Shown here piece by piece: positions 26,246 to 53,243 of a DNA stretch of 64,000 nucleotides. The DNA comes from Escherichia coli (GTDB taxonomy: Bacteria > Pseudomonadota > Gammaproteobacteria > Enterobacterales > Enterobacteriaceae): NCBI RefSeq assembly GCF_009931435.1, contig NZ_CP043414.1. One strand, given 5' to 3'. A model generated the notes under the pieces. It was not told where the DNA came from, did no database searches, and saw only the letters and a list, made by a program, of their open reading frames with translations. The translations under genes and the position numbers were made by a program. Every line of letters begins with the position of its first letter. Positions within the stretch are counted from its first letter, which is position 1.

Positions 26246-27256
26246 TTAGATATGGGTAACGATTTCTTTAATCAGCGGCGGTCCTTTAAAAATAAAACCA
26301 GAATAAATTTGCACCAGTGAGGCCCCCGCAGCAATCTTTTCACGCGCAGCGATAACCGAGTCAATGCCGCCAACACCGATGATCGGTAAGCGACCGTTTA
26401 ATTCCTGAGACAAACGGCGAATAATTTCGGTGCTTTTTAACTGTAGCGGACGACCACTTAAGCCACCGGTTTGATCACAATTTTTCATTCCCTGAACCAG
26501 AGAACGATCGAGCGTGGTATTGGTTGCAATAACGCCATCAATATTATGGCGAACTAAACTATCGGCAACCTGGATCAATTCTTCTTCAGAAAGATCCGGC
26601 GCGATCTTCACGGCGATCGGCACATATTTATGGTGCATCGCTTGCAAATCATTTTGCTTATTTTTAATCGCGGTTAAGAGATCATCCAGCGCTTCGCCAT
26701 ATTGCAGTGTGCGTAATCCTGGGGTATTCGGCGATGAAATATTGATGGCGATATATCCCGCATAGGCATAGATTTTTTCCATACAAATCAGATAGTCATC
26801 TTTACCCTGCTCCACCGGCGTATCTTTATTTTTGCCGATATTAATCCCCAGAACACCATCGTAATGAGCTTTTTTTACGTTCTCAACGAGGTTATCAACG
26901 CCGAGATTATTAAAGCCCATACGGTTGATCAAACCTTCGGCATCTACCAGACGAAAGAGACGCGGCTTGTCATTACCTGGCTGTGGACGTGGCGTGACGG
27001 TACCGATCTCGATAGATCCAAACCCCATCGCGCCTAACGCGTCAATGCACTCCCCGTCTTTATCAAGACCGGCTGCCAGACCAAGCGGATTTTTAAACGT
27101 CAGGCCCATGCAGTTAACAGGTTTCGCAGGCACTTTCTGCCGCACCAGTGCTTCAAACGGTGTTCCTGTAATACGGCGTAATTGCTGAAAAGTAAACTCA
27201 TGAGCGCGCTCTGGATCGAGCTGGAAAAGGGCTTTACGAACGAAGGGGTAGTACAT
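26246..27256 (-). CDS. pyrD: dihydroorotate dehydrogenase (quinone)
   Basis: 336 aa from [21 protein letters not shown]...; the track ORF has a 9-aa extension. Confidence 0.95.
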
Positions 27257-27492
27257 GAACTCTCCTGGATTCCCGGTGTGCAAACCGGGGGCGTATTATG
27301 TGCGAGTTCGGACCAAAAGGGAATTGACCTACGGCAATAAATAGCAAACGTTTTCTTATTGCGCTTTTTTTATGCTTTTTTTGGCTTTGCTTCGTCAGAT
27401 AAATCATTTCGACTCGCGGACGCCCTCTGTCAGACTGACCAAATTGTTATCAATTTTAACAAAACAAGAACAATTGGTTATAAGGAGAGAGT

Positions 27493-31729: not shown

Positions 31730-31925
31730 ATGCCGGATGTGGCGCACAAAAACAGCGGTTTCAACGGATTGTAGGCCTGATAAGACGCGTCAAGCGTCGC
31801 ATCAGGCATTTGGGCACGGCTGCCGGATGCGGCGTGAACGCCTTATCCAGCCTACAAAACCAGCATTTTCAACGGACTTGTAGGCCTGATAAGACGCGTC
31901 AAGCGTCGCATCCGGCATTTGGGCT
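31730..31925. repeat. REP/BIME cluster: three REP palindromes in alternating orientation, with an about 55-bp imperfect direct repeat
   Basis: taggcctgataagacgcgtcaagcgtcgcatcaggca (31771-31807), gccggatgcggcgtgaacgccttatccagcctac (31821-31854), and a second gcctgataagacgcgtcaagcgtcgcatccggc copy (31879-31914). Confidence 0.85.
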
Positions 31926-44167: not shown

Positions 44168-44203
44168 TTTTCAGAAACAGGAAAGGCGGCATCGCTGCCG
44201 CCT
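44168..44203 (-). terminator. probable terminator after mukB
   Basis: Hairpin aggcggc-atcgct-gccgcct just 3' of the mukB stop, with a T-rich tract on the minus strand. Confidence 0.5.
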
Positions 44204-44208
44204 CAATC

Positions 44209-47200
44209 TTAACTCGCCTGGGAAGGCGCTTCGTCAGTTCCTGGAAGCGTTTCAGGGAGTTGCGGTGCAAAACCACGCAGACCGACTACGTGAACGTGTT
44301 CGGTATTCTGGAAGACTTTACGCACCAGTTTATAGGTGGTGCCTTTTTCCGGGCTGATATTTTCCGGCGCTGCGATGATGAGCTGCATTTGCAAACGCTC
44401 ACACAATTCAAACAGCGTGGCGATGGAACGGGCATCCAGTCGCGCTGCTTCATCAAGGAACAGCAGACGGCAAGGAGAGATATCTTTACCGCGCAAGCGG
44501 CGAGATTCATCTTCCCAACTCTGTACCACCATCACCAGAATCGACATACCGGTACCAATAGCCTCACCGGTCGACAATGCACCAGATTCCGCGCGCAACC
44601 AGCCATCGGAACCACGGTTAACCTCAACTTCCATTTCAAGATAGTTACGGTAATCCAGCAGTTCTTCACCGATGGTCTGCGGCGTGCGCTGCCCCATATC
44701 AATCTGCGGATTAAGGCGCTGATACAGTTTCGCCAGCGCTTCCGAGAAGGTCAGACGGTTGCTGTTAAACAGATCCTGATGTTGTTCGTGCTGTTCAGAG
44801 AGCACATCCAGCAGCATGGCGTGCGTTTCACGCACGTTCACGTTGAGGCGCACGCTGTTCACCTGGCCAAACGATACGCTCTGCAAGCCCTGGTTGAGCA
44901 TACGGATACGGTTCTGCTCGCGCTGAATGGTTTTGCGAATAATGTTCGCCACGCTGCGGGAACTGATCGCCAGTTTCTGTTCGCGGGAGGTTAACTCTTC
45001 AGTCAGACGGCTAAGTTCGATCTCCATCTGCTCGATAGCTTCAACCGGATCATCGGTACGAATAATATCCTGACGAATACGCTCGCGCAGATGCTGATAA
45101 ACCGCCACGAAGAACTGAATTTTACGTTCCGGACGTTTTGGATCTTCCGACATACGCAGCACGTCGCGCAGATGTTCGTTATCCGCTACCGCGAGACGCA
45201 ACGCACCCAACGCCTTATCCGACATGGAACGCAAATCATCAGCGGAGAGATAAGCCAGCTCACGACGGTGTAAGCGGCGCTCAACACCGTTATCTTTCAC
45301 CATGCGCATCACTGCACACCAGCCCGCTTTCGCGGTCACTACCTGCTCGCGCATCTCAAAGTAATCACGCTCCAGCTTGCGCAGTTTGCGGGTCAGGTTG
45401 TCCATCTCCGCTTCGCAGAAGGTAAGCGCTTTTTCCAGTTGGTTGCGGCGTGAACGGTTATTGCTCAGTTGCGCGTGCAACTCGTCACGGCGAATACGCG
45501 CCCGCTCTTCTGCCCCGCTATCAGCACGCACGCCGATATCCTGCAATTCACGTTGCAGATCGTTGAGTAGCTCTTTTTTGGTGTCGTAAGAACTTTTCAG
45601 CGAAGCCAGCACCTGGTTGTACTGACTCAACTGCGCTGCGTGTCCGCGCAACGCTTCACGAGCGCGGGTACGCTCCGCTTCCGCCTGTTCCAGACGTTCA
45701 CGCAGTTTTTCGTTGAGATCGCTGTTACCGCTAAGCATTTCTGCCGAGTCAGAGTAGCTAAAGTGCGCACGACGCTGCACCACTTCCGTCAGGGCAAACG
45801 CCTGCTGACGGGCATCGCGCTGCATCTGCTGAGAGTACGCGTAATCTTCTTTTAACTGTTCGAACTGTTCCGGGTCGCTCTGCAATACCGAAACGATCGG
45901 TTCCAGTTTCGCCAGTTGATTGCCAAACTGCTGAACAAAACGCGCGGCTTCCTGGGCTTCATCCAGACGTTCGCGGATTTCATCGACGCGATCTGCCAGG
46001 CTGTCATCAGCCAGCAGGTTAAGACGCGGCAGAATGCGGTTCAGGGCCGTAACGCCCTCTTTCGCCTGCTCAAACTGAATACGCTGCTGCTGGTTATCAT
46101 TTTCATGATTACTCAACGCCCGCTCCAGTTCGACGCGACGGCTGTTCAGTTGACGGATTTCTGCTTCCGGGTCAGACTCAAACGCCACCGCCAGATGACT
46201 ACCTATAAAGCGGCTGAACGCCTGATGCAGACGCTGGGTTTTCTGTACATCAAAAGAGAGTGTGGCGAAGCGTTCGGAAAGCACTTCACGTTCGGCATGG
46301 AGGCTTTCGATGCGGCTTTCGCGAGCAGCACGACCAAACAGCGGCACTTCCGGGAAACGTGAATAACGCCACTGACGATCGGCGATTTTCACCACTACCG
46401 CTTTTTCCAGCTCATCAACGCTGAACACGCTGTCATCGAATGACTGCGGATCCCCTTCGATCAGATAGAGATCTTCCGGGCAATCGGTCAAGCCTTCCAG
46501 GTGTTCGGTTACCTGTGACAGATCTGACACCACGATGGCGTGGCGTGACGGGCCATACAGTGCTGAGAAGTACGGCGCATCTTCCAGGCTAACGTCGTCA
46601 TAAATTTCTGACAGCAACACGCCGCCAAAACGCTCCGCCAGCGCATTCAGACGCTGGTCTTCAGAGCCGCCTGGCTGGCTTAAACGTTCGATCTCTTCAT
46701 CGACGGCGTTTTTGCGTGCGCCAACTTCGTCACGTTCAACAATGGCTTCGCGCTCACGCTCCAGCAACTGTTGCAGATATTCGGTGACGTCCTGGCTTGA
46801 GGAGAATTCTTCGCCGCACTGTTCGCTCAACTGGTTGAGACTGTTTTGCGCTGCCAGCCAAACCGGCGCACGCTGCATCAAACTCTGAATGCGAGACTGC
46901 AGCTGTTCCTGCTCCTGGCGCAGTGCCATCCGCTCTTCTCGGGCGTTAGAGACGCTATCGGAAAGAGAGGCAATGCGTGCTTCCAGCTCCTGATGCAGAG
47001 CTTCCAGTTCATCAATATCAAAATTCTTGCCCTGACGTTTGCAGAAATCTGCCAGCAGACGCTCAGCTTCTTGCTGTTCACGCAGACGCTGTTCCAGTTC
47101 GCTTAAGCGCATCCGCAACGGCTGAACCTGCTCTGCCAGGTGACGCTGATCGACCCCTTCGCGCAATAGTTCGCGAGCGACATCCCACGCCTCGTTACGC

Positions 47201-48669
47201 GCCAGCGGGCCGTTGATTGCCACCACCAGCTGATAAGCCTGCTCAAACTGGCTGTGCGCGGTTTGCGCCATGCTCATTTTCTGCTCAAGAGAGAGCATTT
47301 TTTCGGTCGCTTCCAGCTCTTTCGCCTGGAAGGTTTCCAGCCATTCGGCGGCGCTGTCGGCGGTTAAGTCCGGCAGATGGCACAGTTCTTTGGCACGATT
47401 AAGCGCAGCAATCGCCTGGTTGTACTGGATCGCGCGCGTTTGCTGGACGTCCAGCGCCTGCTGGTAGTCAGCAAGCTGGCTTTTCAGCTCGTCCACTTCC
47501 AGCTCGGCAGCTTCCGCACGAGCCTCGTTCTCTTCCTGGCGTTCGATGGCTTCTGCCACCACTTCGTTTTGCTCTTCCAGACGGATCTGCAGCTCATCGA
47601 GATCCGCTTCGTAGCGTTCGATCTTCTCCTGCTGACGTAGTGCGGTTTGCACCAGGTTCAGGTGATCGCTGGCCGCCTGATAATCCGCTTCCAGATCGCC
47701 TTCGGCACCATTGTGCTCAGCCAGCTCACGCGCCATATCGACATGCTTGTACTGCTCTGCCGCCAGTTGCTGACGCGAAGTGTGAAGCTCACGACGAAAC
47801 TCCAGCGCTTTATCCAGGTGAACACGGCGCTCGTTGGCGTGGCGCATGTAGTCCGCCGCCACGTAGTTAGTCGCTTCGCTGATCAGATGCTTGAACAAGT
47901 CACGGTCAGACTGGGTAACACGAATCGCTTCCAGCGTCATACGGTTTTCACGCAGCGCCGCTTCCATGTCCTGAAACGCTTTACGCACGCCGCTATTTTC
48001 TGGCAACAGGTAGTCGCGCAGAGAACGGGTGATGGCGCTGGAAATCCCGCCGTACAGCGAAGCTTCAATCAGACGATAGAATTTACTACGATCAGACGCT
48101 GAGCGCAGACGACGTGCGATGATGCCCAGATCGAACATCAGCGAGTGGTAATCGGTAATAGAGTTGAACTGCTTAAACTGCACGCCTTCCATCGCTTCGA
48201 GCTTGTCTTTCAGCTCGTTAAGCGGCAGCACGCGCGCCTGACGTTCATTCAGAGTTTCGGTCACCAGTTGTGTCGGCTGCACCGACATCGGCAAGCCCTG
48301 AATGGCAAATGGTTTGATATCAACTTTACGATCGCGCCCGGCAACCTGTTGCAGACGCACACCGACCACTACACGCTGGTGGCGCGAGTTAATGGTGTCG
48401 AGCATCGAATAACAGACACCCGCTTTCAGCTTACCGTGCAGACCTTTATCGCGCGAACCGCTGGTGGCCCCGGCTTCCGTAGTGTTACGGAAATGCAGCA
48501 GGGTCAGGTCGGGGATAAGCGCCGTAACGAACGCCGCCATGGTGGTGGATTTACCCGCCCCGTTACCGCCAGAAAGCGTCGTGACCAGCTCGTCAAGGTC
48601 AAAAGTTCGGGCAAAAAAGCCGTTCCAGTTAATCAGCGTCAGTGAGCGAAATTTACCGCGTTCAATCAT
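44209..48669 (-). CDS. mukB: chromosome partition (condensin) protein MukB
   Basis: 1486-aa ORF with an N-terminal Walker A (GGNGAGKST), long coiled coils and a C-terminal ABC-like head. Confidence 0.97.
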
Positions 48670-49373
48670 TATTCTTCCTCTCCGCTATCTGGCTGATTCT
48701 CTTCGGTTTCATCGTTGAGTTGCAGATGATTTTCAATCGGCATTGCTTCGCCATCACGAATCAGGCGACGCTGTGCTTCACGGGGATCGTCGCCAGCACG
48801 CACATCGGCTCCGAAGCGGAACACCGATTCGGTAATGCGGAACTTGCTGCTGTCGTGGCCCATAAACCACACCATGCCTAAACGACGCAGACGGTTGAGC
48901 GAAGAACGTACTTTCTCCTGCAACTTCTGCCGGTCAACGTCTGAACCGGTTGAACGGTTGTTCACCAGTTTCAGCAGTTTCGCTTCATCGGCCAGGGTGA
49001 GCAGTTCATCGTACAGTTCCTGCTGGGTGAAAATCCCCTCATTCGCCAGCCGTTCCGGGCTGAGATAAAGATAACAGAGGATTTTCCCGACCATCATATC
49101 CAGTTCCGACAAGACGGAACGAGGGATAATAGTGGTGGAACGTGGGCGTAAATAGAAGAACCCCTCCGGTGCGCGAATAAGCTCAACGTTATAACGCGCG
49201 TAAAATTCTTCCAGATATTCCTGAAAATCCATCAGGAATGCATGATTATCCAGTTCGTCAAGGCCAATATGGCGGCCTGAACGTAAGGCGCTATCCAGCG
49301 CCGGAAATAACGGATTCGCCAGCGCCTGCGCCAGCTTAACCGGCATCACTTGTTCAATATTTGTCGATGACAT
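48669..49373 (-). CDS. mukE: condensin subunit MukE
   Basis: 234 aa from [13 protein letters not shown].... Its stop overlaps the mukB start (TAATG), and its 5' end overlaps the mukF 3' end by 20 nt. Confidence 0.9.
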
Positions 49374-50676
49374 GCGCCTGTACCTTGGCTCCGTAATCAT
49401 TAATCGGCTGCCATTTCGCTGGCAGTCCGGTGAAATCTGCTTGCGCTACGCCAAGACGTACCGCCTGATCAATAACAATGCGCGCAACGTCAAAGTGACG
49501 TGCACGCGGATACTGTGACAGATATTCGCGTACCACCAGACCAAGATCCAACGGCACTTGTCTGGTTTTGTACACGGCAAGTTGTTCTTCGATGATCGCC
49601 GCCAGCTGTTCGCGGATCTCGTTAAACTCTTCGTACTCCAGATCCTCAGGAAGTTCCCCAGTCACTTCTTCATCGCGCAGTGCCATCTCTTCGTCACGCA
49701 TATCCAGCAGACGATCGGCATTGGCATAAGTTAGCGCCCACGGTTCATCAAAATAGGTTTGTACCGACTGACGTAACCGCTGAGCAAAGACGCGGTTTTT
49801 ATCCATATCGATAGCGGTACGAATAAATTTGTGTACGTGGCGGTCGTAGCCAATCCATAAGTCGATGGATTGCTGGCCCCAGCTGATAATACGGTCAAGT
49901 TTGCTTTGCAGATCGAACACCAGACGATCGACGAAATGCAGATCATCATGAGTCATCGTCGCATCCTGAATGCGTAACAGATTAGCCTGCAATTTATCAC
50001 CTGCCGCTTCCAACGTATCCTGCAATTCACGCAGCGTTCCGGAAGTTTCCGAAAGCAACAATTCACAGCTGGAAATCGCCGCCCGCCAGTCTTTGTTCAA
50101 CAACTGGGCGATATCATCCTTCACCTGCTGCTGCTGTTCATCCATCAGACGTTGAGTCAGGTCGATACTGTCGAAAATTTCTGCTACCGAATATTTCAGT
50201 GGCGCATAGACATTACGGTGCCAGTGAAACTCATCACCGCCCTCTTCGGCGGCATCTGCCGCGCGTTTCAGTTCGCCCGCCACAATCGACAACTGCATAG
50301 AAAGGCGCAGCGTCGAAAACTCGCGCTGACGGATGTAGTAATCGGTAATACCGATGCCAAGCGGCGTCAGACGGTAAATTGCGTTCCCTTCAGCCTGCTC
50401 GCTGGTAAAGCGGTTCAGCAGACGTTGACGAACCATGTCGTTGATCGCGTTGTTGGCGCGTACGCCGATGGTTTCGCTGGTTTGCTCAAACGCATCACTC
50501 ACATGGCGGAATGCATCCACCAGCTCGCCTTCACTCATCTCACCATCCAGACGCTCGCCGTTCAGCGTGGCAACCGCCAGCAGAAAAGAGAGTCGGTCTA
50601 CCGGCAGCGAGATGGAGAAGTCATTTTTTCTGGCCCAGGCAACCAGTTCGGGGACTGTCTGGGAAAATTCACTCAT
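49354..50676 (-). CDS. mukF: condensin kleisin subunit MukF
   Basis: 440-aa ORF recognised as MukF. Confidence 0.96.
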
Positions 50677-51458
50677 ACTTTATCCTTGCTCTGCGGTTTG
50701 CGCGCGGTGACATGAATATAACGCCCCAGGGTAATATACGGTTCCTGACGGCAATAACGCGTTTCTAATTCAAGTAATGCTTCATAGCAGTCGCGCTGCT
50801 GGTGCTTCTCGCGCAGGTAATCATGAAACACGCGAACGCCGGTCTTACCCATAATTTGCCAACCAGCTTCTTCCAGCCACAGATAAACCTGCGCCGGGTC
50901 GCGTGGATAATCTGGCGAAAGCGTCCGTTTTTTCTTTTTCGGCATTCCCGCCTGCACGTAATCAAAATTCCCTGCAACCATGTTATGCATCAGCAAGCCG
51001 TGCGCATTGTAGAACATTAACGACAACACACCGCCTGGACGCAACACTGACCACAGGGTCTGCAATACGCTGCGGGGATCGGCCACCCACTCGAGCACCG
51101 CATGGAACAATATCAGATCAACGGGCGTTTCCAAATGCGAAGCAACATCCTGAGCGGCGCAATGTATAAATTGCATGTTGTCGCTCACACCTTTTGCTTC
51201 TGCCGCCTGTTTTGCGCGGTCGATCATCTGCGCTGAAAGATCGCATAAAATGACCTGATGCCCACGCTCGGCCATTTTGATTGCGGTCTGCCCTTCTCCA
51301 CCGCCAGCATCCAGCACACGCAGTTTTTGCGAGCCCATTTCCGCCAGCACGCGATCGAGATCCTGCCACAGAATAGCCTGTCGAAGCTGCCCTTTGGTGG
51401 TGCCGTAAATGTTACGGGAAAACTTTTCCGCAATATCATCAAAATTGCGATCCTGCAT
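50673..51458 (-). CDS. cmoM: tRNA cmo5U34 methyltransferase (SAM-dependent)
   Basis: 261 aa from [16 protein letters not shown]... with a SAM-binding motif (VLDAGGGEG); 4-nt overlap with mukF. Confidence 0.9.
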
Positions 51459-51593
51459 TGCTTTCTCCACCGGTTGGCTAAGACGTTTTCTGATAAAGAC
51501 GCTATTTTGTCACAGCCACGGCGAGAATGAACCCGTCTGGTGTAATATCGCTGGCGATCCCTTGCTATATGGTCAAAAAAGGAACCAGAAAGG

Positions 51594-52373
51594 ATGCTTT
51601 TTACACTGAAAAAAGTGATTGGCGGTATGCTGCTGCCACTTCCGCTGATGTTGTTGATTATTGGCGCTGGCCTGGCGCTGCTGTGGTTTAGCCGTTTTCA
51701 AAAAACCGGGAAGATTTTTATTAGCCTTGGGTGGCTGGCGCTCTTGTTATTGAGTTTGCAACCGATAGCCGACCGCCTGCTGCGTCCCATCGAAAGCACC
51801 TATCCGACATGGAATAATTCGCAAAAAGTGGACTATATCGTGGTGCTCGGAGGTGGTTATACCTGGAACCCGCAGTGGGCACCGAGCTCGAATTTAATCA
51901 ATAACAGTCTGCCACGTCTGAATGAGGGTATTCGCTTATGGCGCGAAAATCCGGGATCAAAACTGATCTTCACGGGAGGCGTAGCAAAAACCAATACGGT
52001 GAGTACAGCCGAAGTAGGTGCAAGAGTTGCGCAATCGCTGGGTGTCCCTCGCGAGCAAATTATCACCCTGGATTTGCCAAAAGATACCGAAGAAGAAGCT
52101 GCGGCAGTGAAACAGGCGATTGGTGACGCCCCTTTCCTGCTGGTAACCTCCGCATCACATCTGCCGCGGGCGATGATCTTTTTTCAGCAGGAAGGGTTAA
52201 ATCCGCTGCCAGCCCCGGCGAACCAGTTGGCCATCGACTCGCCGCTTAATCCGTGGGAACGAGCAATCCCTTCTCCAGTCTGGTTAATGCATAGCGATCG
52301 TGTTGGCTATGAAACGCTTGGCCGCATCTGGCAGTGGCTGAAAGGTTCGTCAGGCGAGCCACGGCAAGAGTGA
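51594..52373 (+). CDS. elyC: envelope biogenesis factor ElyC (DUF218)
   Basis: 259-aa ORF with an N-terminal TM segment; recognised as ElyC (YcbC). Confidence 0.9.
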   Translation: MLFTLKKVIGGMLLPLPLMLLIIGAGLALLWFSRFQKTGKIFISLGWLALLLLSLQPIADRLLRPIESTYPTWNNSQKVDYIVVLGGGYTWNPQWAPSSNLINNSLPRLNEGIRLWRENPGSKLIFTGGVAKTNTVSTAEVGARVAQSLGVPREQIITLDLPKDTEEEAAAVKQAIGDAPFLLVTSASHLPRAMIFFQQEGLNPLPAPANQLAIDSPLNPWERAIPSPVWLMHSDRVGYETLGRIWQWLKGSSGEPRQE

Positions 52374-53243
52374 TTTTGATGCCAGATCGAAGTTGCGCCG
52401 ACTAAATCGTCCGGTGTTGACCAGTTGCGCAACTTCATCCCATAACACATACAACCAACGCCGCCAGATGAACGACTCCGCCACTGGCGCGCGTTGCAGA
52501 TAACTCCAGAGCAAATCTTCCGCCAGAGAATTATCCATTAGTCGGAACAGTTCGTATTCTCGCGGTGCCCAAAGCATTAGTCCCGGTCCGACCATCGCCA
52601 GTAACTGATCGCTGCGCGAATCTTTCAGCATGCTGCGTAAACAGAAGTTACCGTGAATCAGCACACAATTGTCGTTAAAGCCTTCAAATAATGCCGGGAG
52701 ACATTCACGGGTGCGAAACAGGATCCGCTTATCCTGCATCGTTAGACCGGTGTTATTGAACTGATTGAGCGTAGTCCATAGCACTTCAACATGTTGCCGG
52801 TACCATGAGGGCCAGAAATTTTCCTGAGTATTGTCGACCGCGCCGACGCAACCACGACTGTCCTGACGGTGCCAGGCCAGTAAGGCTTCAACGATTTGGT
52901 CTTTGAGTTGTTCCCAGCGTTCTGGTGTTCGGGCTGGTGCCTCCACCGAAACACCACGCATTCGCTCCAGTAGCAGGACATCGGGGCCGGGGTGTTCTTC
53001 ATGCGTCATCACACCATAAATAGTCGGCATACGGACAGTCCCACTTCTTGCCAGCATGGTGGTTTTCCATGCCAGTTGTCGGGCTTTTCCGGGCGCACTA
53101 AAGCTTCTTGCCATTAACGGCATTGGGTTTCCCTGGCTGTCATACAAAGCCCACAACGCCGTATCCGCTTTTTCATTGACGCACTCAATACGACTGAGTT
53201 TTTCGCCCAGTAAATGGCTTAATTCGGCACGCAGCTGTTCCAT
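52350..53243 (-). CDS. ycbJ: phosphotransferase (APH-like kinase fold) family protein
   Basis: 297-aa ORF recognised as YcbJ; convergent 24-nt overlap with elyC. Confidence 0.88.
   Translation of the reverse strand: MEQLRAELSHLLGEKLSRIECVNEKADTALWALYDSQGNPMPLMARSFSAPGKARQLAWKTTMLARSGTVRMPTIYGVMTHEEHPGPDVLLLERMRGVSVEAPARTPERWEQLKDQIVEALLAWHRQDSRGCVGAVDNTQENFWPSWYRQHVEVLWTTLNQFNNTGLTMQDKRILFRTRECLPALFEGFNDNCVLIHGNFCLRSMLKDSRSDQLLAMVGPGLMLWAPREYELFRLMDNSLAEDLLWSYLQRAPVAESFIWRRWLYVLWDEVAQLVNTGRFSRRNFDLASKSLLPWLA

Follow-up and report, generated by a model that had tools for sequence, protein, structure and literature searches.

Overlapping junctions and ribosome-binding sites in the cmoM-mukF-mukE-mukB operon of Escherichia

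The operon and its overlaps

The window, i.e. the whole 64,000-nucleotide stretch of Escherichia coli DNA that was analysed, carries the genes cmoM, mukF, mukE and mukB in this order on a single strand, the minus strand. When the reverse strand is read directly, each of the four is a clean open reading frame with one stop codon. The genes, their junctions and a candidate terminator are located as follows.

50673..51458, minus strand: cmoM (smtA), first gene of the operon, tRNA cmo5U34 methyltransferase, 261 aa, ATG...TGA
49354..50676, minus strand: mukF, kleisin subunit, 440 aa, ATG...TGA
48669..49373, minus strand: mukE, 234 aa with ATG 49373 as the start, ATG...TAA
44209..48669, minus strand: mukB, SMC-like ATPase, 1486 aa, ATG...TAA
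50673..50676, minus strand: cmoM/mukF junction, ATGA, 4-nt overlap in the context GT-ATGA-GT
49354..49373, minus strand: mukF/mukE junction, 20-nt dual-coding overlap, ATGTCATCGACAAATATTGA
48667..48671, minus strand: mukE/mukB junction, TAATG, 1-nt overlap at 48669 in the context GAA-TAATG-ATT
44183..44204, minus strand: candidate operon terminator, a GC-rich hairpin with a T-rich tail 5 nt past the mukB stop, found by consensus scan alone

The gene names given in the original prediction are correct, as the NCBIfam equivalog models match the products end to end. CmoM matches NF008264 over residues 1-261 of 261 and MukF matches NF003615 over residues 1-440 of 440; MukE matches NF003602, whose profile begins at residue 3, and MukB matches NF003422 over residues 1-1484. 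MukF, MukE and MukB are all full-length, with scores far over the cut-offs of their respective models. Compared with chain C of PDB entry 3euh, which has the same 234-aa form, MukE shows one substitution (L82I).

The locus was compared with two RefSeq genomes annotated by PGAP, a 99.7%-identical E. coli strain and K-12 MG1655, and the gene order, the boundaries and the overlaps are the same in both. The K-12 genes smtA(cmoM)-mukF-mukE-mukB (b0921-b0924) are colinear with the window over 7,250 nt and have the same spacings of -4, -20 and -1 (here and below, negative values denote overlaps in nt) with identical junction sequences; the nucleotide identity is 96.8% and there are 7 amino-acid differences in total. 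Unlike K-12, the window derives from a divergent Escherichia lineage. The smtA-mukFEB genes are known to form one transcription unit (PMC4332155, PMC9239193). On the coding strand, a consensus scan, which is an insensitive method, found no internal promoter- or terminator-like sites apart from a weak 5-bp match within mukB (45383-45366), and a search of the operon for known RNA families found none. The layout is the known, ordinary arrangement of the E. coli chromosome condensin.

The interval to which the original prediction referred, 48667-49373, runs from the mukB ATG to the mukE ATG. The overlaps of 4, 20 and 1 nt that it described are real, both in the open reading frames as read directly and in the RefSeq annotation of K-12 and of the 99.7%-identical strain. 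Within the mukF/mukE overlap the frame that encodes the end of MukF (...HVIDKY, then the stop) and the frame that encodes the beginning of MukE (MSSTNIE) differ by one base. At the other end of mukE, the TAA is immediately followed by a second in-frame stop (TGA, 48668-48666).

The overlaps are statistically unremarkable, 20 nt being the sole uncommon length among the three. In E. coli, 707 of 2,987 co-directional gene pairs are spaced at -8 to +6 nt, with -4 as the commonest value and -1 as the second (PMC10666635). Overlaps occur in 9 of the 30 co-directional pairs found in the surrounding 50 kb, and besides the three described here these are msbA/lpxK, ycaR/kdsB, ssuB/C, ssuD/A, ssuA/E and pqiB/C. 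The ssu operon alone has spacings of -8, -4, +11 and -4.

The start codon of mukE

Three in-frame ATG codons are available to mukE, at 49400 (243 aa), 49373 (234 aa) and 49346 (225 aa). The figure of 20 nt depends on ATG 49373, so that the choice of the start decides whether mukF and mukE overlap at all. The comparative evidence favours 49373. First, a usable Shine-Dalgarno (SD) sequence is found at 49373 only: the calculated anti-SD duplex is -5.8 kcal/mol there, as compared with -1.8 kcal/mol at 49400 and -0.2 kcal/mol at 49346. Second, 104 unique sequences were collected with a metagenome search pattern that fixed the C-terminal amino acids of MukF alone and allowed any synonymous codon. 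All 104 sequences have CAT, which creates the mukE ATG, as the MukF His codon and GTC as the Val codon, where GTA or GTG would turn codon 2 of mukE into a stop. No stop was seen within the first 13 mukE codons in any of the 104. Third, in Pasteurellales-like and other lineages the orthologous MukE has an N-terminus of equivalent length and no Met at the position equivalent to 49346.

ATG 49400 was rejected as the start, since its SD is weak and the codon is replaced (AAC-G) in Enterobacter, Cedecea, Buttiauxella and others.

A start at ATG 49346 would leave a 7-nt spacer after the mukF stop and hence no overlap. This shorter MukE, of 225 aa, was used for two solved structures (PDB 3rpu and 7v8p); its ATG is present in 102 of the 104 unique sequences, and the stretch from the mukF stop to ATG 49346 does not show a clearly codon-like pattern of evolution. 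However, the codon has no SD and is absent in two lineages, i.e. in the remaining 2 of the 104, whereas the CAT and GTC codons that create the upstream start and hold it open are fixed throughout. The matching length of the orthologue N-termini and the NCBIfam profile, which begins at residue 3, also speak against it, as does the fact that RefSeq has revised the K-12 MukE record to the 234-aa form (NP_415443.2). We regard a start at 49346 as highly improbable, and ATG 49373 is used as the mukE start in what follows.

Conservation of the junctions and of the initiation sites

The variability of the junctions was followed in 80 species-level loci from Enterobacteriaceae, the only family returned by the genome scan for relatives of MukE. 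More distant MukE lineages were reached singly via representative proteins, and most of these are metagenomic contigs. Within Enterobacteriaceae the spacings are distributed as follows.

cmoM/mukF: -8 in 36, +3 in 30 and -4 in 11 of the 77 scorable loci
mukF/mukE: -20 in 80 of 80 loci
mukE/mukB: -1 in 63, -4 in 15 and -8 in 3 of 81 sequences (the 80 species loci and the window)

Judged from these sequences, the three junctions evolve differently, two of them being labile and mukF/mukE being frozen. The -20 spacing is also found in Rahnella and in the fast-evolving endosymbiont Candidatus Symbiodolus, in which MukE is 60% identical. The labile junctions share a sequence feature: mukF (ATGAGTGA) and mukB (ATGATTGA) both open with ATGAnTGA, so that both alternative frames meet a TGA no more than 8 nt in. 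The C-terminal tails of CmoM and MukE are variable; a tail that arrives in one of these frames stops at -4 or -8, or a codon sooner at -1, and one in frame 0 stops just ahead of the start. The cmoM/mukF and mukE/mukB spacings would drift in this manner because ATGAnTGA stops alternative-frame reading within 8 nt, and the two short overlap lengths thus look like a by-product of the sequence.

Outside this family, with starts placed by the gene caller, the mukF/mukE spacings in the distant lineages are +34, +85, +56, +7, +52, +15, +1, -8 and -32, and the mukE/mukB spacings are -1, -1, -4, -11, -8, -17, +138 and +342. Psittacicella and the metagenomic gammaproteobacterial lineages have the same mukF-mukE-mukB order and often a tight mukE/mukB junction (-1 to -17), but they differ in having gaps of +1 to +85 nt between mukF and mukE and, in two of them, of +138 and +342 nt between mukE and mukB. 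One lineage (L083) has no cmoM upstream of its muk genes. The existence of distant MukBEF operons with such gaps indicates that tight packing is common, yet not required.

The gene in front of each downstream start contains an SD for that start, placed at a working distance, and the synonymous sites in these regions are conserved to different degrees. The relevant regions are listed here.

50683..50687, minus strand: mukF SD, AAGGA, within the cmoM coding sequence, 6 nt ahead of the ATG
49374..49398, minus strand: mukE translation-initiation region within mukF, GAUUACGGAGCCAAGGUACAGGCGC, with AAGG at 49386-49383 and GGAG at 49392-49389
48676..48683, minus strand: mukB SD, GGAGAGGA, which also supplies the Gly-Glu-Glu codons in the acidic tail of MukE
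50632..50667, minus strand: mukF codons 4-15, the second most conserved synonymous island in the alignment ranking described below

The anti-SD duplexes are -5.2 kcal/mol for AAGGA of mukF, -5.8 kcal/mol for AAGG/GGAG of mukE and -6.6 kcal/mol for the mukB sequence. The AAGGA of mukF is invariant across 29 aligned species, and either GGAGG or GAGG is present ahead of mukB in all junction sequences shown from the Enterobacteriaceae comparison.

Local RNA structure was assessed at the same positions. Single-sequence folds of the junctions are no more stable than those of shuffled sequences (z-scores of -1.1, -0.4 and +0.6), and alignment folds at the junctions contain almost no covariation (terms of -1.18 and -0.29 kcal/mol). 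The energy needed to open the initiation region is 7.9 kcal/mol for mukF, 13.6 for mukE and 10.2 for mukB, as compared with a local median of 9.3; in other words, mukF and mukB are ordinary and mukE is moderately high. At mukE a hairpin of -8.3 kcal/mol is predicted, whose loop contains AAGG and whose stem contains the AUG, and at its sole informative pair there is 1 compensatory change versus 5 broken pairs. An occluding RNA structure at the junctions is not supported. With an SD at each start, and with local structures that are neither significantly stable nor strongly occluding, independent initiation at each of them is plausible in physical terms.

Synonymous conservation was measured in a 3.5-kb alignment of 77 sequences (the window and 76 species loci), in which 1,110 windows of eight codons were ranked. 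On average about 7% of the third-codon positions are invariant in this alignment. The eight mukF codons that precede the mukE ATG (49398-49375, GATTACGGAGCCAAGGTACAGGCG) rank first among the 1,110, with a mean non-consensus fraction of 0.013 versus about 0.3 overall, and this stretch is not dual-coding. The initiation regions of mukF and mukB rank 104th and 192nd among the same windows. In the 104 unique sequences, five of the seven free synonymous sites ahead of mukE (-20, -17, -14, -11 and -5) are at least 94% fixed, and the other two (-8 and -2) vary freely; the fixed sites are such that GGAG and AAGG are preserved. The simplest reading of this pattern is that the conserved stretch is a selected ribosome-binding site for mukE.

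It could also be proposed that the approximately 45 nearly invariant nucleotides around the mukE start (49398-49353) are a dedicated translational operator that does more than an SD, which we consider very doubtful. In one variant, the predicted hairpin with AAGG in the loop and a paired AUG may tune MukE to twice the level of MukF; in another, a protein or a small RNA may bind there and regulate the synthesis of MukE and MukB apart from that of MukF.

Two further candidates were rejected. A pairing between the two conserved islands, i.e. the 5' region of mukF and the mukE initiation region, gives a duplex of -18.4 kcal/mol versus a shuffle mean of -17.9 kcal/mol (p = 0.43). A MukF-MukE fusion made by programmed frameshifting was dismissed as well, since the overlap CAUGUCAUCGACAAAUAUUGA contains neither an X-XXY-YYZ slippery heptamer nor a prfB-like CUU-UGA with a closely spaced SD.

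Translational coupling and subunit stoichiometry

The original prediction took the overlaps to be consistent with translational coupling that fixes the subunit stoichiometry of the condensin. A part of this is plausible: the -4 and -1 overlaps, with an SD in the upstream gene, fall in the class of junctions for which coupling has been demonstrated in other gene pairs. The stoichiometric part is overstated, since CmoM is no subunit, the F:E ratio is 1:2 and the -20 overlap is out of range.

The published evidence on coupling is as follows. Termination-reinitiation (TeRe) coupling was shown in four of five tested E. coli pairs that have a -1 or -4 overlap and an upstream SD, and bioBF overlaps without being coupled (PMC6728339). 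Short overlaps are enriched for subunits of complexes, with a predictive range of -8 to +10 (PMC10666635). In synthetic constructs coupling declines as the overlap gets longer and is gone at -25, the abundance of -4 overlaps is thought to reflect the ease with which they evolve, and phage genes have been described in which ribosomes reinitiate backwards across tens of nucleotides (review, PMC12548453). A search of the accessible literature found no paper that tests translational coupling in muk, and no ribosome-profiling, reporter or proteomic measurement of the muk subunits; a text search for subunit copy numbers found counts for MukB only.

Measured against the -8 to +10 range, cmoM/mukF (-4) and mukE/mukB (-1) lie inside and mukF/mukE (-20) lies outside. 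The muk operon, known here from sequence, resembles the TeRe-coupled pairs of E. coli and Haloferax (Huber et al. 2019, 2023; PMC6728339, PMC10666635) in that the genes are co-directional on a single mRNA, the junctions are of the ATGA and TAATG types, an SD lies in the upstream gene, and MukE and MukB belong to the same complex. It differs from them in its 20-nt mukF/mukE overlap and in the fact that cmoM/mukF joins unrelated functions. A second known system is the coat-lysis junction of phage MS2 (PMC12548453). There, as in mukF/mukE, the downstream start lies well ahead of the upstream stop, so that reinitiation would need backward movement or the unwinding of a structure; however, MS2 has a spacing of -50 and a debated mechanism, and at mukE no stable occluding structure is supported.

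The strongest form of the coupling idea is that ribosomes are strictly handed over from cistron to cistron at all three junctions and that this fixes the stoichiometry. It draws on the overlapping stop and start codons with their upstream SDs, on the high proportion of tested E. coli pairs that are coupled, and on the fact that MukE and MukB, joined by a -1 junction, are equimolar in the complex. The complex is MukB4:E4:F2, i.e. 4:4:2 for B:E:F (PMC8602292). Reinitiation yields at most one downstream start per upstream termination, and strict reinitiation therefore cannot supply MukE at twice the level of MukF; a 1:2 ratio is unattainable by a 1:1 hand-over. CmoM is a tRNA methyltransferase and not a condensin subunit, so the cmoM/mukF overlap is without stoichiometric logic. 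The -20 overlap is beyond the range of efficient reinitiation, the initiation regions are not strongly occluded, and in distant MukBEF operons the genes are separated by up to 85 nt (F/E) and 342 nt (E/B). Strict coupling at all junctions is thus improbable.

The opposite proposition is that the overlaps are incidental, i.e. that they result from compaction and drift, and that each cistron starts at its own SD without functionally relevant coupling. We judge it rather unlikely, though several observations are in line with it. The spacings -4, -1 and -8 are the commonest in E. coli, -4 evolves easily (PMC12548453), and bioBF shows that an overlap need not entail coupling (PMC6728339). Two of the three junctions switch among -8, -4, -1 and +3 in close relatives, and there is an SD at each start. 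The leaderless regulon attributed to MazF has been disputed. mukE is listed among the mRNAs that are cleaved by MazF and are still associated with polysomes, with the cut at 7 nt from the start (PMC5001579); if this listing is correct, mukE does not need mukF upstream in order to be translated. On the other hand, 80 of 80 Enterobacteriaceae keep all their junctions within -20 to +3, which suggests selection for closeness, most of the tested overlapping pairs of E. coli are coupled (PMC6728339), and a ribosome that terminates on a start site cannot avoid influencing that site.

The explanation that we favour, and hold to be probable, is that this is the known cmoM-mukFEB operon with packed cistrons, in which it is the separate initiation sites, and not the overlaps, that determine the subunit ratios. 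One mRNA of about 7.3 kb would carry the cistrons packed without spacers, every downstream SD sitting in the last codons of the preceding gene and the upstream stop lying at most 20 nt from the next start. At cmoM-mukF (ATGA) and mukE-mukB (TAATG) ribosomes would terminate on top of the next initiation site, and some termination-reinitiation coupling is likely at these two junctions beside SD-driven initiation. The conserved C-terminus of MukF supplies the mukE AUG through its His-Val codons (CAU GUC), and the strongly conserved SD region lies ahead of this AUG. We infer that mukE is initiated largely on its own SD and not solely by ribosomes arriving from mukF, since the complex contains MukE and MukF at two to one, assuming that the synthesis rates match the stoichiometry of the complex. 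A partial reliance of mukE on unwinding by the ribosomes that translate mukF is possible, because its initiation region has a calculated opening energy of 13.6 versus 9.3 kcal/mol. Compact packing as such probably keeps ribosomes continuous on a long, short-lived mRNA and co-localises the synthesis of the partners.

The original prediction had recorded the arrangement as known biology, and rightly so: the operon, the overlaps and the general idea of coupling are all established, and the present results carry little weight as a discovery. What they correct is the inference drawn from the overlaps, since an overlap by itself does not fix subunit stoichiometry. The initiation region of mukE is a modest lead on how MukF, MukE and MukB come to be made at 1:2:2 from one mRNA.

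Synonymous conservation around the mukE start

Across the 3.5-kb alignment of 77 sequences (the window and 76 Enterobacteriaceae species loci), synonymous conservation is highest in the last eight mukF codons ahead of the mukE ATG, which rank 1st of 1,110 eight-codon windows. The two top-ranked islands of synonymous conservation are as follows:

49375-49398, - strand, top-ranked island, mukF codons adjoining the mukE ATG
50632-50667, - strand, second-ranked island, mukF codons 4-15, TTTTCCCAGACAGTCCCCGAACTGGTTGCCTGGGCC

The 49375-49398 island lies in a single coding frame, that of mukF, i.e. there is no dual coding, and within it GGAG and AAGG are kept. For a candidate long-range pairing of GCCUGGGC of the mukF island with a similar cmoM motif about 120 nt upstream, only one-sided changes were seen.

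The published MazF regulon includes mukE, cleaved at an ACA 7 nt from the start (PMC5001579), which may be either of the two ACA triplets found here. One of these, at 49379-49381 (-), is 8-6 nt ahead of the favoured start (ATG 49373), and its first A differs among species; the other, at 49351-49353 (-), is 7-5 nt ahead of the alternative start (ATG 49346).

The ends of the operon

In the cmoM upstream region, CAAAATA with TGA before it (51503-51509, -) is invariant in the 77 sequences. This motif is a possible extended -10 element of a promoter; the consensus scan called no promoter at this position. At the other end, a GC-rich hairpin of 9 pairs with a T-rich tail (44183-44204, -) begins 5 nt past the mukB stop codon and is predicted as the likely intrinsic terminator of the operon. 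Elsewhere in the window, Rfam matches over the gathering score were found for the PyrD leader (27251-27324, -, 97.9 bits) and the nucleoid-associated non-coding RNA naRNA4/CssrE (31774-31852, -, 82.2 bits).

Divergence and gene junctions

The operon (44209-51458) is only 96.8% identical to that of E. coli K-12, and only 6 of 5,425 complete E. coli genomes show at least 99% identity over 48400-51600. The source of the window appears to be a divergent Escherichia lineage. Distant relatives from metagenomes include MukE homologues of 382-501 aa that carry long C-terminal extensions:

L092, 798-2303, long MukE homologue locus
L095, 3001-4359, long MukE homologue locus
L093, 303-1451, long MukE homologue locus

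In L092 and L095 mukB lies 138-342 nt downstream of mukE, with no overlap. A separate overlap in the window is that of the convergent genes elyC (+, 51594-52373) and ycbJ (-, 52350-53243), whose 3' ends share 24 nt (52350-52373).

Both mukB (48667-48674, -) and mukF (50669-50676, -) start with ATGAnTGA, so that each of the two alternative frames contains a TGA at most 8 nt from the start; it is because of this that upstream genes in relatives end at -4 or -8, i.e. overlap the downstream gene by 4 or 8 nt.
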